Source: a virus
Direction: 5' to 3' (one strand)
UHGV virus genome: UHGV-0250353
Length of the DNA: 45,006 bases
The notes beneath the pieces were generated by a model. The model saw only the letters and a program-made list of their open reading frames with translations, had not been told where the DNA came from and made no database searches. Shown here in pieces: positions 1,482 through 26,829 of this stretch (within the stretch, counting starts at the first letter, position 1; every line of letters begins with the position of its first letter). The position numbers and the translations under genes were made by a program.

Positions 1482-3791
1482 TTAATACCCCGGCTGACCG
1501 CGAGTAGAGCGGCGAGCTTTAGAAATCGGTGAGTTGTTATCCTGTAACTGCGACGCTACTGTTTCACTGATTATAATACGTAAACGCCCTTCGTCATCAC
1601 GTTCTGTTACAGCAGAATCTACGCGCCCCGTAGTGTTATTAACTATAGTGACGTTATCACCGCCGGACTGGCCACCGTTTTGCCCCATAATCTCTTTCAT
1701 CTGCTGCGCAGTTCGTACGCGCGATGCGCCAGCAGGCATGATAACTTCCGGTTTGCCGCGTTCTGCGATGGTAGACATCTGCCCCGCTGATAACTGACCG
1801 CCCTGCTCACGTGCCGAGCGGATTTTGGCGATATTAGCCAGCCCCGCGGCAACGGCAGTACCTGCGGCAACCGGTGCCAGGAATGGGCCGACAACCGGTA
1901 TCGCTGCGGTAGACTTATATGCTTCGATAGCCGAGGTGTATGTTGCGATAGTGGCCTGGGCAATAGCAAACGCTTTATACGCGGTGGACGCCTCGCCAAA
2001 TGCCGTTTTAGCATTAGCTGCCATGTCACCGAAAGAACTACCTAAAGCCTCGGCGCGCTTCGTAGCATACTGCTCATTGATAGCGTTAAGCGCCGCCTGA
2101 TACTGTTCCTCGTTAATAAGCCCCTGTTCTCGATACTTATCAGCGACAGCCAGTTTCTGCTGTTCCTGGATGTCGAGGAGCTCAAGCTCAGCGGCGTTCT
2201 GCCCCATAATCTGGGCCATGAAGTCATCGCCTTTCTGCTGCTTTTCCTGCTGCTCTTTTCTTTTCTTATCCAGTTCTTCCTGTCTGGCCTGCTCGGCTGT
2301 GAGCATAATTTGAGTTTTGGCGTTTTCGTATTGCTGCTGGCTTATCGTTCCTGCGCGGTTGAACTCTTCAAGTTTTGCCAGTTTCTGCTCTTCGGCCGCC
2401 GTGATGCGAGAAATTTCATCTCCGGTTGTACGGTCAACCGTAGCAAGGAAATCTTCCGCGGCTTTCTTCTGGCGTTGTGCCGCCGTTTCTTCACGTTTGG
2501 CCTGCGCCGCCAGACGTTTCTCGTTCGATTTAGCCTCGCGGTCTGCCTTCTCTTTCTCGGTCTTGTCAATGCGGGCGATGTCTTGCTGTGCTTCCGTGTC
2601 ACGAGCAGCATTATACGCGGCGATCTGTTCTTTGGTTACAGCTTCACGTTTAGCAAACGCCTGCTTATCCAGTTCAGCTTGCGCCCGGATGCGCTCACGG
2701 TCGCTTAAGATGGCGATTTGCTGATTCTTGACGATAGCTTCGTTCTGCTCCTGGAACCTCTGCGTGGTTGAGTTAACGTTACGACCGAGATTCTTTTGGG
2801 CTTCCGCCGCTGCGTTTGCGGACTTCTCCGCGTTCTCCAGTGCTGTGGCGTTCTTGTTGGCGTTGTCTGTCAGGCGGATAAGTTCCGGATTCAACTGTTT
2901 TGTGTTACCGAGCCAGTCGGTAAACACATCGGCGATGCGGCGGGCATTCTCGGCGGTTGGCTCTTTGTTAAACGCGCTCTGCGCCGCTATCATCTCCAGC
3001 GCCTGGTCACGGTTAACCCCGAACTTACTGCTAAGCTCCGCTATATTCTGCGCCAGCATGTTGACGCCTACGATGTTACCCTCGTAAGTGCCGCCAAGTT
3101 TTTCTAACGTGTCGCCTACATCCGCACCCTTAGAGACCAATGCATCGTACTGGCTAATAGCGGATGCCGTGGAGGCTTTCCATGTCTCCCATGACTCGGC
3201 GTCCTCGCGGACAGCTTTAGCTGTTTGCTGCGCGATAAGGTCTGCGTTAGCCTTAGCCAGAGCAAGCTGAGTCTCCGCCGCTTCTCTGCTGATTTGGGTA
3301 AGCTGGATAAGGCCGTCTGTCAGTTCGAGGGAGCCAGATGCCGTTTGCTGGAAGGTGTCTTTTAACTGTTTCTGCGCGGCTTCCAGGTCTTTTGAACTGC
3401 CTTCTGCTTCGGTTAGCGATTTGTACAGGACACCGCCGATTGCCGAAGCAAGAGCAATCACAGCCCCGAGCACCGCGCCACCAGGTCCGAAAGCACCAGC
3501 AAGCTGCGAACCTTGTTGCCCGATTGCTACGAATGCAGACGTGCCGGATTGCAACTGGACTACCATGTCCTGCACCTGGAAGCCAACCTGCCCTGCAGCG
3601 TTACGGAACTTAGCGAAACCGTCGGAGGCCGCTTTAGACGTAGCGGAGTTTACTTTATTAACGTCCGGCGTTAGTTTGTTTACGGATGTGTCCGCCCGGT
3701 CTGCGGATGCCGCCATAGCGTCAAGCTGTTTAGCGGCCGCATCAGCGCCTTCTGTTTTTACTCTGGCAATTAGGGAAGCCGTATCAGCCAT
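1482..3791 (-). CDS. tail tape measure protein
   Basis: about 770 aa Ala/Gln/Glu-rich coiled-coil protein immediately downstream of chaperone pair; ATG 3791 with GAGG RBS preferred over TTG 3806 used by ORF track. Confidence 0.8.
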   Translation of the reverse strand: MADTASLIARVKTEGADAAAKQLDAMAASADRADTSVNKLTPDVNKVNSATSKAASDGFAKFRNAAGQVGFQVQDMVVQLQSGTSAFVAIGQQGSQLAGAFGPGGAVLGAVIALASAIGGVLYKSLTEAEGSSKDLEAAQKQLKDTFQQTASGSLELTDGLIQLTQISREAAETQLALAKANADLIAQQTAKAVREDAESWETWKASTASAISQYDALVSKGADVGDTLEKLGGTYEGNIVGVNMLAQNIAELSSKFGVNRDQALEMIAAQSAFNKEPTAENARRIADVFTDWLGNTKQLNPELIRLTDNANKNATALENAEKSANAAAEAQKNLGRNVNSTTQRFQEQNEAIVKNQQIAILSDRERIRAQAELDKQAFAKREAVTKEQIAAYNAARDTEAQQDIARIDKTEKEKADREAKSNEKRLAAQAKREETAAQRQKKAAEDFLATVDRTTGDEISRITAAEEQKLAKLEEFNRAGTISQQQYENAKTQIMLTAEQARQEELDKKRKEQQEKQQKGDDFMAQIMGQNAAELELLDIQEQQKLAVADKYREQGLINEEQYQAALNAINEQYATKRAEALGSSFGDMAANAKTAFGEASTAYKAFAIAQATIATYTSAIEAYKSTAAIPVVGPFLAPVAAGTAVAAGLANIAKIRSAREQGGQLSAGQMSTIAERGKPEVIMPAGASRVRTAQQMKEIMGQNGGQSGGDNVTIVNNTTGRVDSAVTERDDEGRLRIIISETVASQLQDNNSPISKARRSTRGQPGY

Positions 3792-11444: not shown

Positions 11445-11480
11445 CTCTTAGTAAATGAAAAGAGGGACCGAAGTCCCTCT
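11445..11480 (-). terminator. hairpin AGAGGGAC-CGAA-GTCCCTCT, attenuator after capsid gene
   Basis: 8-bp stem read directly; U-rich tract on minus RNA after the stem. Confidence 0.45.
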
Positions 11481-11496
11481 CGATTATAGCTTAACC

Positions 11497-13596: not shown

Positions 13597-13828
13597 GGGT
13601 AATCACCTCTGATTTCGTCTTGCCTTCGTTGTCGGCGGCTGCGGCCTTTGACTCATCCTGCTGCTGCCGTTGTGTCTTCTTAGCTAACTCAGCCTTCGCT
13701 TTTTGGGTTTGTTCGGTAACGAGGTCAAGCCGTCCCGCATCCCAGCCGCGGTTGTATTGGTACCCCCCGTACAGCCATACCGTAAGCAAGCCTGCCGCCG
13801 TTAGTGTTGCTGTGTTGCTTAGATTCAT
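13442..13828 (-). CDS. i-spanin (Rz-like)
   Basis: N-terminal TM helix then charged coiled-coil region; contains overlapping lipoprotein gene. Confidence 0.65.
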   Translation of the reverse strand: MNLSNTATLTAAGLLTVWLYGGYQYNRGWDAGRLDLVTEQTQKAKAELAKKTQRQQQDESKAAAADNEGKTKSEVITREVVKYIKTPSRSVCTFDPERVQLKSRAVANANSIPGYDNDAAAVQAGTAK

Positions 13829-13852
13829 GTTTCCCCTTTCTCGATAAGTAAA

Positions 13853-13872
13853 GCCCCGCCTTAAAGCGGGGC
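13853..13872 (-). terminator. hairpin GCCCCGC-CUUAAA-GCGGGGC just upstream of Rz RBS
   Basis: 7-bp GC stem read directly; weak U tract; may be attenuator or RNA stabiliser. Confidence 0.35.
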
Positions 13873-13935
13873 GCTAGTCCTTATCATTTAAACATAGAAA
13901 CGGCGTAATCTCAGTAAACCAGTTACTCTTTACAC

Positions 13936-14071
13936 AAGCAAAAGAGTATGGCCCTTCCGAACGCGTCAGCGTAACTACACTCAGGACTTACGTCCCGCTC
14001 CGTTACCTGCCCGCGCCGCGGTCGCTCGTTCATACTTCACAAGCTCAGGTGGAGCTTATCATATTTTTAGT
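13936..14071 (-). repeat. conserved noncoding element, copy A (candidate structured RNA / leader)
   Basis: about 88 percent identical by hand alignment to 26454..26590; compensatory hairpin 13974..13985; no conserved ORF. Confidence 0.6.
14043..14071 (-). promoter_or_regulatory. candidate extended -10 promoter TTGACT-N17-TGaTAAGCT inside copy A
   Basis: hexamers read on minus strand; conserved in copy B. Confidence 0.4.
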
Positions 14072-14144
14072 GAAAAGTCAACTATTCGAATAGTTTATTC
14101 CAACATTTACAATTGATTGGAATAACTGGAATAATTACGAGCCA

Positions 14145-14165
14145 TAAAAAGCCCCTTTCGGGGCT
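14145..14165 (-). terminator. intrinsic terminator AGCCCC-UUUC-GGGGCU with U5 on minus RNA
   Basis: stem and A-run (plus) read directly, immediately after stop of 14171..14632. Confidence 0.55.
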
Positions 14166-14170
14166 TCAGT

Positions 14171-15713: not shown

Positions 15714-15734
15714 AAGAAAGCCCCTTTCGGGGCT
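15714..15734 (-). terminator. hairpin AGCCCC-UUUC-GGGGCU after portal gene (same 18-nt sequence as 14148..14165)
   Basis: read directly; U-rich tract follows on minus RNA. Confidence 0.4.
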
Positions 15735-22553: not shown

Positions 22554-22994
22554 TTATCCTAATAGTTGTTTGGTAATAATCTTGCCGCCGGTGTTGGTGT
22601 CGAACTTCGATGCAACAGCTACGCCGCCATGTGCTGAATAACCACATTCCATAGCCGCCAGTGCATAAGGAGAGCCGGACCCAACGGCGGCAAAACCGTC
22701 TGCAATAGGGATAACAGAGCTTAGTGCACAATCCCATGATTTATAGAACGCGACTTTATACACCTTTTCTGTGTCTTTCACGAACACAAGGGCTTCGAAA
22801 TCGAAGTCGTATGATTTTGGATTAAGTACGCCATTATCACGGATTAGCATAACCCCAACTCCTGCGTCCCCGGCTACCCCAATTATGAAATGGTCATTCT
22901 CGTATATCTTTGTGTCTGTGTTGTAACAGTTACTCCCGCACACAACACAGGTGTCACAGGCCATTGTCTTTCCGTCAAACGCGATAGTCGTCAT
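22554..22994 (-). CDS. HslV/proteasome-like Ntn-hydrolase peptidase
   Basis: MTTIAFDGK N-terminus (Thr after Met), K...IIGVAGD, GSGSPYALAAM aligning by eye to HslV motifs; GGAG RBS. Confidence 0.6.
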   Translation of the reverse strand: MTTIAFDGKTMACDTCVVCGSNCYNTDTKIYENDHFIIGVAGDAGVGVMLIRDNGVLNPKSYDFDFEALVFVKDTEKVYKVAFYKSWDCALSSVIPIADGFAAVGSGSPYALAAMECGYSAHGGVAVASKFDTNTGGKIITKQLLG

Positions 22995-24955: not shown

Positions 24956-25080
24956 TGTTGCATCTCCTGCAATAGTCGCTTCTATTGTTGCGTTTGGTGA
25001 AATAGAACAAAAATGAGAAAAATGATACGCTGCTGTGTAGCAGCGTAAGTCACAAAGCCAAATAGTAACCTATTGACCTG

Positions 25081-26323: not shown

Positions 26324-26379
26324 AGAGTACGCAACGCAGGGGGTGGGCATTAGCCCACCCCAGCGGAGTGAAGTACTCT
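26324..26379. other. nested inverted repeat AGAGTAC...GGGTGGGC-atta-GCCCACCC...GTACTCT (structured element in control region)
   Basis: outer 7-bp and inner 8-bp complementary arms read directly; no adjacent U-run. Confidence 0.4.
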
Positions 26380-26453
26380 CTACCTTGCTCACGGCAACTA
26401 TAGAAACTTTTAATTATCAGTGACTTGGGTATTTAGGCGGGATTAACAATAGA

Positions 26454-26590
26454 CTATGGCCCTTCCGAATGCGGGCAGCGACACTACACTCAGTGCTAAC
26501 GCACCGCTCCGTTCTCCTGCCGCACCGCGGTCGCTTGTTCATACTTCACAAGCTCAGGTGGAGCTTAGCATATTTTTAGTGAAAAGTCAA
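26454..26590 (-). repeat. conserved noncoding element, copy B
   Basis: paralogue of 13936..14071; compensatory hairpin 26493..26504. Confidence 0.6.
26562..26590 (-). promoter_or_regulatory. candidate extended -10 promoter TTGACT-N17-TGcTAAGCT inside copy B
   Basis: same motif and position as in copy A. Confidence 0.4.
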
Positions 26591-26685: not shown

Positions 26686-26829
26686 ATGAAGATTTGCCAG
26701 ATGTGTAGGAAAGAAAAAGAAGAAGGTGCATTCCTTAAACGTTATGACAGAAAAGGAACGCGTAGTTATTGCCGTGAATGTTTCAATGCATACCGCAAAC
26801 AATTAAGAGAGGCTAAGAAGAATGCATAA
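26686..26829 (+). CDS. small zinc-ribbon protein (47 aa, CxxC...CxxC)
   Basis: GAGGGG RBS then ATG 26686; hand translation MKICQMCRKEKEE...YCRECFNAY; first gene of rightward arm. Confidence 0.45.
   Translation: MKICQMCRKEKEEGAFLKRYDRKGTRSYCRECFNAYRKQLREAKKNA

Follow-up and report, generated by a model that had tools for sequence, protein, structure and literature searches.

The stretch of DNA analysed here (the window; 45,006 nt from the virus genome UHGV-0250353) belongs to a Kagunavirus, a virulent siphophage of Escherichia coli. On its minus strand it carries at two places a module in which an extended -10 promoter is followed directly by a structured, non-coding leader RNA of about 108 nt. 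Promoter and leader are strictly coupled, i.e. neither occurs without the other, such that the pair can be considered a portable module. The leader consists of two stem-loops and a single-stranded tail, which are retained in relatives while the helices themselves are rebuilt. Owing to the coupling to the promoter, the self-contained character of the element, the conservation of its structure as well as of its unpaired bases and its position at the head of late operons, we favour a leader that would act in cis and would have a specific macromolecular partner.

The element was first noticed in an initial annotation made from the letters of the window, which described two copies of about 88% identity. 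The in-register alignment of the two same-strand copies (14081..13939 vs 26590..26447, minus strand) agrees with this: 127 of 145 columns match (87.6%, three one-base indels), which is far beyond chance. The promoter-side half is nearly identical as claimed, with two differences over the first ~90 nt (-35 to about +57). The coordinates of copy B were correct, those of copy A about 10 nt too low (GGACTTACGTCC is located at 13984..13995, not at 13974..13985), and the range given for copy A (13936..14071) misses the -35 hexamer at 14076..14081; the homologous block covers approximately 13939..14081. A covariance model obtained from relatives detected exactly two sites in the window, with 138 bits for copy A and 126 bits for copy B, the next best site scoring 7 bits. 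The shared block stops at about +108, counted from a predicted transcription start at the G at 14046 (copy A) or 26555 (copy B), 7 nt after the -10 hexamer. Further downstream the two copies are unrelated, for which reason the function of the leader should be self-contained and independent of pairing with a particular terminator.

Folded singly, each version from the Kagunavirus (K) family adopted a common shape: a 6-bp stem P1 starting at +3, a GA linker, a long stem-loop (SL-II) and an essential-looking 18-nt tail. The base of SL-II is formed by CCG, a bulged C and GGYGC with two conserved G.U pairs, followed by a 3-bp helix and a 1-nt bulge. Above these come a helix of 4-5 bp and an asymmetric internal loop, and the apical helix of 5-6 bp is closed by 4 loop nucleotides that vary. 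The parts are placed in the window as follows:

13939..14046, minus strand: copy A leader RNA (+1 to +108) with P1, SL-II and tail, from the covariance model (138 bits), folding and covariation
14024..14044, minus strand: copy A P1, GCUUGU / loop GAAGUAUGA / ACGAGC, paired in 32 of 32 distinct relatives
13957..14021, minus strand: copy A SL-II, a long irregular hairpin whose basal helix with tandem G.U is followed by CAG/CUG and GUAAC/GUUAC
13982..13997, minus strand: apical hairpin GGGAC-GUAA-GUCCU in the upper part of copy A SL-II, above the internal loop 5' GGAG / 3' GAGUGUA
13939..13956, minus strand: copy A single-stranded tail AAGGGCCAUACUCUUUUG, after the closing CGG of SL-II
26447..26555, minus strand: copy B leader RNA (+1 to +109), from the covariance model (126 bits) and folding
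26533..26553, minus strand: copy B P1
26465..26530, minus strand: copy B SL-II, with the apical hairpin GGUGC-GUUA-GCACU at 26492..26505
26447..26464, minus strand: copy B tail

To characterize the structure by comparison, homologues were gathered from IMG/VR and metagenomes using exact and degenerate patterns as well as the capsid-protein neighbourhood, and extracted with the covariance model R1. The paired substitutions first seen in a 4-bp hairpin (GGAC-GUAA-GUCC in copy A vs GUGC-GUUA-GCAC in copy B, on the transcribed strand) are real, and with relatives included compensatory changes reach well beyond this hairpin. RNAalifold applied to a plain MAFFT alignment returned 24 pairs, 6 of them with compensatory changes. 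For a 28-pair structure over 32 distinct sequences, in an alignment that was itself fitted by the covariance model, 94.2% of the pair cells were paired, compared to 31-41% when the 3' partners were slid. The covariation score was 0.182 vs 0.074 in shuffles and was reached by 0 of 500 shuffles. Single positions display the pair types CG/UA/AU, UA/AU/GC, GC/CG/UA, GC/GU/UA and AU/UG/GC/CG; three pairs show three pair types each, and three apical pairs changed on both sides. The middle helices of two subtypes (B2 and B3) stand in a register shifted by two, and the variation within P1 is limited to a change from U-A to U.G, its loop being different in the subtypes B6 and A2. Since G.U pairs are conserved and U.G variants occur, the functional strand is that of the minus-strand transcript. 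Fold and covariation in relatives thus agree with the structured leader RNA proposed at the outset, and the pattern of changes is that of purifying selection on structure in both copy contexts.

Unpaired bases were retained as well: the linker, the internal loop (5' GRAGC, 3' AGYGUA) and the tail are kept between the K type and the divergent Jerseyvirus (J) type despite the rebuilt helices. The tail has the family consensus GGAAGGGCCAUAsUCUAUUG, which includes the last two G of the closing CGG of SL-II, and is conserved in all Kagunavirus subtypes and in the J type; two further leader types, M and N, contain a related motif. Such conserved unpaired bases argue for a specific ligand, such as the polymerase or a protein, beyond the mere need for a stable hairpin. 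Several more specific identities were discarded. As judged by eye, pairing of GUAUG in the P1 loop with CAUAC in the tail into a pseudoknot is possible in copy A only, the subtypes B3, B4, B6 and A2 and the J type having lost it. Likewise by eye, the internal loop offers no clean match to a kink-turn or to a sarcin-ricin motif. An AAGTAT in the P1 loop, resembling a -10 element and thus a candidate for a sigma-dependent pause element, is not kept in B6 and A2.

The element is widespread among relatives of the window. With the 281 nt around copy A as query, matches of 80-99% identity were obtained in 181 phage records, of which 180 reached 90% or more. These records belong to Kagunavirus and its Guernseyvirinae relatives, siphophages that infect E. 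coli and Salmonella, among them K1G/K1H, Golestan and Schulenburg. The K family comprises one main copy-A type, the divergent A2 type and six copy-B subtypes (B1-B6), whose inner helices are extensively rewritten. In Salmonella phages the J type provides a divergent version at the same site upstream of the i-spanin gene. It was found by model R1 at 27-32 bits (E ~1e-6), and the reciprocal search with a J-only model recovered K1H and the window copies (E of 5e-5, 5e-4 and 0.015). By BLAST the J type is present in 268 phage records, once per genome. Its promoter follows the same plan as in K (TAGACT-N17-TGtTACGCT), and its leader has in common with K the base of SL-II (CCGCGGUGCGG...CGCAUUCGG), the internal loop and the tail (GGAAGGGCC...UAUUGCUU). 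J differs in the middle helix, which is another 4-bp helix CGCG/CGCG, and in the apical helix with a C-G to U-A change; P1 is doubtful in J. At the same site other structured leaders are found in the Cornellvirus-like M type (13 records) and in another lineage, the N type, with 110-140 nt between promoter and spanin gene and with GNRA-capped hairpins (loci L321 2090..2390 and L315; L329 and L331 at ~1900..2250). They share only the tail motif with K and J (GGAAGGGUCGAGGUCUGUUAC or GGGGAUAGUCUAUUC), and homology to the K/J family was undetectable with the models R1 or R2.

Outside these phages we did not find the element. A host or prophage origin was discarded, as 5,426 E. coli genomes gave no BLAST match. 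A loose gapped pattern scan of viral contigs returned almost exclusively chance matches; in the metagenome scan about half of the matched stretches were due to chance, and the model scored only phages of this group. Rfam 15 gave 0 matches at the gathering threshold over the whole window and only chance-level matches (E > 0.9) in an E-value scan around copy A, and no paper describing the leader was found in the literature searched.

The extended -10 promoter that had been proposed for the minus strand is present as described and is of the sigma-70 type. The pattern TTGACT-N14-TGnTAAGCT occurs exactly twice in the window, once per copy, with no others even at three mismatches:

14053..14081, minus strand: copy A promoter, -35 TTGACT at 14081..14076, 17-nt spacer, TG at 14061..14060, -10 TAAGCT at 14058..14053 (exact pattern match)
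26562..26590, minus strand: copy B promoter, -35 TTGACT at 26590..26585, TG at 26570..26569, -10 TAAGCT at 26567..26562 (exact pattern match)

About 40 distinct relatives have conserved both hexamers (-35 and -10 TAAGCT) as well as the TG, while spacer and discriminator varied: the base between TG and hexamer is A, C or G, and the discriminators are CCACCT, CGTCCT, CAGCCT, CGACCT and TCACT. This is the conservation pattern that would be expected of a working extended -10 promoter. A simple consensus scan omits it, because TAAGCT agrees with TATAAT at just three of six positions.

The surroundings of the promoters contain a number of further signals. A perfect palindrome, AACTATTCGAATAGTT, adjoins the -35 hexamer of copy A (14080..14135 in plus coordinates) and is preceded further upstream by several GGAATAA/TTATTCC repeats. 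Repeats of this kind also stand before the promoters of the J and M types but not before copy B. They look related to the PHIRE motif tgAATAGTa-ccTATTat-T that is present in seven copies in phage fBC-Eco01 (PMC9825357). Palindrome and repeats probably serve as operator at which a DNA-binding regulator encoded by the phage would control the late promoter. On the plus strand, 14106..14135 resembles a divergent promoter (TTTACA-18-AATAAT with TG, 10/12) that faces away from copy A and leads directly into a bidirectional terminator at 14149..14166. This site is kept in the Jerseyvirus locus L299 (2465..2436), and precisely at this point Schulenburg carries the insertion of a gene in reverse orientation that is annotated as sliding clamp.

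Just downstream of the promoter the -10 hexamer recurs, as TAAGCT-CCACC-TGAGCT(T) in K and TACGCT-ACC-TACGCT in J (14041..14058 and 26550..26567 in the window, ~2510..2530 in L299), and its third base co-varies between the repeats (A/A in K, C/C in J). The repeat may be a sigma-70 pause element, an antisense terminator or the trace of a local duplication. In the K type the repeat forms a palindrome, AAGCTC-N5-GAGCTT (-11..+6), that overlaps the 5' arm of P1; in the plus-strand scan it came out as a weak terminator-like hairpin with a T-run behind it. Within both copies there is also an antisense promoter-like sequence, TTCACA-18-CATATT (9/12; 14036..14065 and 26545..26574, plus strand). In copy B it would face the divergent replication operon starting at 26686 and possibly arose by chance.

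An AUG in the P1 loop opens reading frames of 36 and 41 codons in the two window copies, which raises the question of a gene for a small basic protein (MNKRPRRGQ...), as is annotated in Schulenburg and, as a hypothetical protein, in some relatives. We regard such a gene as hardly tenable. In other subtypes the frame has 19, 22 or 35 codons and is shifted, such that the length ranges from 19 to 41 codons, and the AUG is missing in B6, A2 and the entire Jerseyvirus type. Indel lengths are not divisible by three, what the substitutions keep intact is base pairing and not codons, and there is no usable ribosome-binding site. The varying start, frame and length effectively refute the small frame and bear out the earlier statement that no open reading frame is conserved; for the same reason the hypothetical protein annotated over the element is spurious. 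Public records place small hypothetical genes on both leader copies and on either strand (L002 6098..6208, Schulenberg_008; L046 25870..26145, Schulenberg_057/058).

For the gene context we used the curated annotation of Schulenburg, whose plus strand corresponds to the minus strand of the window. Copy A is preceded by a Hoc-like head-decoration gene with its terminator and followed by the genes for i-spanin, o-spanin, scaffold, major capsid and tail proteins, which form its transcription unit. Copy B is located in a divergent intergenic region, from which the replication genes run the opposite way. Its upstream neighbour (26686..) is on the plus strand, contrary to the initial annotation, in which all flanking genes were on the minus strand. 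The copy B unit contains, in order, small genes, holin and endolysin, more small genes, terminase, portal and the decoration gene. Slightly upstream of the lysis genes this unit also encodes, at 22554..22994 (minus strand), a 146-aa protein that matches a PHROG family annotated as HslV-family peptidase (E = 5e-34), an unusual cargo at this place.

The untranslated leaders of both units measure 218-330 nt. Untranslated RNA of such length is otherwise exposed to Rho. Neither the curated annotation of the close relative nor a PHROG scan of ten early proteins revealed an N- or Q-type antiterminator; a Q protein is annotated neither in Schulenburg nor in K1H. No arginine-rich N-like protein was evident among the open reading frames downstream of copy B, and the scanned early proteins belong mostly to families of unknown function. 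The literature searched contained no transcriptome or promoter study of Kaguna- or Jerseyviruses.

Downstream of the leaders, and directly before the copy A promoter region, the following hairpins are found:

13853..13872, minus strand: hairpin before the ribosome-binding site of the i-spanin gene (ATG at 13828), GCCCCGC-UUUAA-GGCGGGGC then UUUACUUAUC; passes the terminator-like scan
26324..26379, minus strand: composite hairpin downstream of copy B, outer AGAGUAC/GUACUCU, inner GGGGUGGGC-UAAU-GCCCACCCC, then UUUUAAG; not flagged as terminator-like
14141..14166, minus strand: intrinsic terminator of the upstream Hoc-like decoration gene, AAGCCCCGAAAGGGGCUUUUUAUGG; Schulenburg has a terminator annotated at the equivalent place

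The initial annotation had each copy followed by a terminator-like hairpin. Both hairpins exist, of which only that of copy A passes the scan. Judged from these sequences, an obligatory leader terminator is not a conserved feature of the family, a terminator-like hairpin being present only at Kagunavirus copy A. A switch in which the tail would pair with the downstream hairpins was discarded as well, as no complementarity was found and the downstream sequences differ between the copies. The composite hairpin, which is not a canonical terminator, is kept downstream of the early promoter with or without copy B (K1H version at L164 35130..35195). The GC-rich spanin-side hairpin (13849..13876) recurs inverted in the early leader of K1H (L164 34969..34996, 96% over 28 nt), which suggests a small mobile or bidirectional hairpin module. 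On the transcribed strand terminator-like hairpins are also contained inside both units, at 25047..25026, 15734..15719, 14166..14141 and 11481..11460. The one at 15719..15734 (minus strand) lies between the portal and head-morphogenesis genes, and that at 11460..11481 (minus strand), strong and with a UUCG loop, after the major capsid gene; our scan found no consensus promoter directly after the latter.

Copy B occupies the second place in about one quarter to one third of the K-type records, i.e. in only some Kagunaviruses, while most relatives have a single copy at the late operon. From this distribution, copy B is an add-on. K1H does without it: the same spot holds a promoter of the consensus form TTGACA-N17-TAAAAT with an unrelated leader of ~230 nt, and the sequence rejoins that of the window at ~26421, with the composite hairpin and the downstream operon included. 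Chimeric arrangements also occur. At locus L013 (2160..2340) copy-A flanks surround a B1 core, at L175 (2127..2305) a copy-A upstream flank is joined to a B3 core and a different downstream sequence, and L203 is likewise chimeric; among these loci a copy-A upstream flank followed by downstream sequence resembling that of copy B is also seen. Either the ~145-bp repeat has undergone recombination or gene conversion, or it has led the assembly astray.

What the leader might do can be approached by comparison with known systems. The initial annotation had likened it to the put-type antitermination RNAs of phage HK022. The putL and putR sequences, taken from the HK022 genome and compared with the residue numbers of the cryo-EM study PMC9378689, gave no support for a common family: local alignments of K and J with putL and putR stayed within shuffles (fraction at or above the observed score 0.08-0.94), whereas the control of putL vs putR scored 35 at a shuffle maximum of 26. 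The models R1 and R2 found nothing significant in the PL-PR region of HK022, and Rfam gave no match on the put region, hence it is without a put model. In put itself the nascent RNA binds the zinc-binding domain of beta' and reduces both pausing and termination with no need of protein factors. The architecture differs as well, with two adjacent stems in ~72 nt in put compared to ~108 nt with a 6-bp P1, a ~65-nt SL-II and a tail here, and the host phage there is lambdoid while here it is a virulent siphophage. What is alike is the arrangement: a promoter-proximal, cis-located element of which two paralogous copies, related by compensatory changes, head two long phage transcription units, located in both units between the promoter and downstream terminators, with no antiterminator protein identified. 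Most relatives have a single copy.

The leader of lambda pR', the system of 6S RNA, qut site and tR', resembles that of copy A in that a late promoter is followed by an untranslated leader of ~200 nt with a hairpin, a -10-like hexamer near +1 (here GAGCTT in K, TACGCT in J) and then lysis genes (here the spanins) before the head and tail genes. Unlike in lambda, the annotations of Schulenburg and K1H list no homologue of Q, and in the relatives of types J and M the hairpin of the leader is no terminator. What is conserved here is an RNA structure, whereas Q systems rely on DNA sites. The nut and rrn boxB-boxA-boxC leaders, too, have close to a long operon's promoter a hairpin and behind it a U-rich single-stranded motif that is conserved; the element differs from them in the boxA core and in that no N-like protein was found. 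The rrn/lambda boxA core GCUCUUUA is recognised by NusB-NusE (boxA sequences: PMC3177189). The tails ACUCUAUU, AGUCUAUU, GCUAUAUU and GGUCUGUU agree with it at no more than 4-6 of 8 positions and do not conserve its leading GC, such that an assignment of the tail as boxA was rejected.

Likeness of another kind exists to the RNase III sites of T7 and T3 (e.g. R0.3), which likewise are irregular hairpins in paralogous copies, measure about two helical turns and have a conserved internal loop; R0.3 is located in the leader just past the strong host-polymerase promoters and before gene 0.3. These sites differ in standing between many genes, without being tied to a promoter +1, and the conservation of flanking single-stranded bases is stronger here. 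The ompA 5' untranslated region similarly has a 5'-terminal hairpin with a very short overhang and a second hairpin near the ribosome-binding site. With the predicted starts at 14046 and 26555, P1 would begin 2 nt from the 5' end in K, which is not clearly so in J. The ompA element depends on structure and not on sequence, whereas the sequence of internal loops and tail is retained between genera here.

Our best reading, which is tentative and which we hold to be a real possibility short of probable, is a cis-acting leader that modifies elongation over the multi-terminator late operons, sharing with put its logic and not its ancestry. The host sigma-70 polymerase would start at the G of GAGCUU from the extended -10 promoter; the first ~108 nt would fold co-transcriptionally into P1, SL-II and the tail, which is purine-rich and then U-rich. 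The leader, alone or with a factor, would then stay on its own RNA polymerase and render elongation more processive, with less pausing and less intrinsic and Rho-dependent termination, and the effect would extend across both long units, each with internal terminators. RNA-mediated processive antitermination of this kind is possible, as judged from the context. In its favour count the strict coupling to a promoter, the self-contained block, the selection on structure, the conserved unpaired bases, the terminator-like hairpins inside both units, the lack of a recognised N- or Q-type antiterminator in the annotation and proteins examined, and the long untranslated leaders that Rho could otherwise attack. 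The narrower claim of a new structural class of factor-independent, polymerase-riding antiterminator RNA in virulent Guernseyvirinae, unrelated to put, we consider rather unlikely.

Several observations weigh against antitermination. Besides the missing kinship to put, the plain TTGACA-N17-TAAAAT promoter of K1H drives the same early operon including the 25047..25026 terminator region. Copy B is therefore dispensable for its unit, and the earlier notion that the early genes can only be reached by reading through a terminator with the help of the element is weak. It is likewise weak for the late genes: in the J and M (Cornellvirus) homologues of the spanin-side hairpin the stem is kept with compensatory changes while the U-tract is lost and the hairpin is not flagged, and the copy B hairpin is not terminator-like either. 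The ordinary promoter of K1H at the copy B site and the non-terminator hairpins of J and M keep our confidence in antitermination low. Partial terminators after capsid genes are moreover common in phages that have no antitermination system. The folding energy of the single sequences is unremarkable (z of -0.9 and -0.7), for which reason the evidence for structure rests on comparison rather than on thermodynamics.

The same features can be read as those of a processing or stability leader, in which SL-II would be an RNase III site, or the tail an RNase E site with P1 as protective hairpin, setting half-life and 5' end of the late mRNAs. This is a doubtful candidate that nonetheless deserves serious weight. 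SL-II stacks to ~21-26 bp in K and J despite the rebuilt helices, i.e. about two turns and the size of an RNase III substrate, and as an irregular hairpin with a conserved asymmetric internal loop in paralogous copies it recalls the T7 R sites. The position of the K-type P1 2 nt from the predicted 5' end, the second hairpin on the side of the ribosome-binding site, which without U-tract in J and M looks structural, and the exchange of the module for an ordinary promoter in K1H fit as well. The conservation of linker, tail and internal loop, however, exceeds what an RNase III site or a protective hairpin usually needs, and the element is never found apart from its promoter. The predicted J-type start would shorten P1 to ~3 bp, and by eye the K-type tail misfits the RNase E motif RN|WUU. 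Alternatively, the leader may be a protein-binding site that co-regulates both units, either nut-like for an unrecognised antiterminator or for a translational or timing regulator (a CsrA-type GGA binder). For such a partner speak the conserved unpaired nucleotides, a GGA-containing purine tract in every type including M and N, the families of unknown function to which most of the early proteins belong, and the GGAATAA/TTATTCC repeats upstream of copy A, which suggest regulated late expression. We nevertheless consider it unlikely: no candidate protein and no evident arginine-rich N-like frame downstream of copy B was found, and the tail departs from the boxA core, including its GC.

A pair of trans-acting small RNAs, with transcripts ending at the hairpins (~200 nt for A, ~235 nt for B) or cut at the tail, appears quite improbable. 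It would explain the strong promoter-like site and, in copy A, the terminator-like hairpin that follows, in likeness to the lambda 6S RNA or the StxS small RNA from pR'. PMC7547250 provides a precedent for prematurely terminated late-promoter transcripts that act as small RNAs. However, the two copies have different 3' hairpins, and those of J, M and copy B do not resemble terminators. No complementary target was identified. The BLAST search against the 5,426 E. coli genomes was empty, at a sensitivity that short seed matches would escape. Very unlikely, finally, is a DNA-level operator or protein-binding DNA, or a passive hitch-hiker of a promoter duplication. The palindrome AAGCTC-N5-GAGCTT at -11..+6 and the -10 hexamer repeated just downstream in K and J would fit such an element, but compensatory changes and G.U pairs that are specific to one strand (they would read C.A on its complement) point to selection acting on RNA of the minus strand, and the apical helices of copy B have strongly diverged with their pairing kept.

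A cis-acting leader with a specific partner, the reading that we favour, would concern phages of practical interest, as the Guernseyvirinae (Kagunavirus, Jerseyvirus) are among the phages most often isolated for therapy against E. coli and Salmonella. We know of no prior knowledge on how they time and sustain late transcription with the host polymerase alone. Among the non-coding features that we found where their morphogenesis operon begins, the leader is the most conserved. Rfam does not contain it, and in the records inspected it is unannotated or mis-annotated as a tiny protein. If it modified RNA polymerase, the Guernseyvirinae would be the second phage lineage known with RNA-only processive antitermination, using an unrelated fold. 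If it were a polymerase-riding antiterminator, more than 450 sequenced Guernseyvirinae genomes would drive their late operons through terminators with the host RNA polymerase unmodified. If it should instead be a processing or stability signal, the module would still offer a compact, portable promoter-plus-leader cassette for strong enterobacterial expression.

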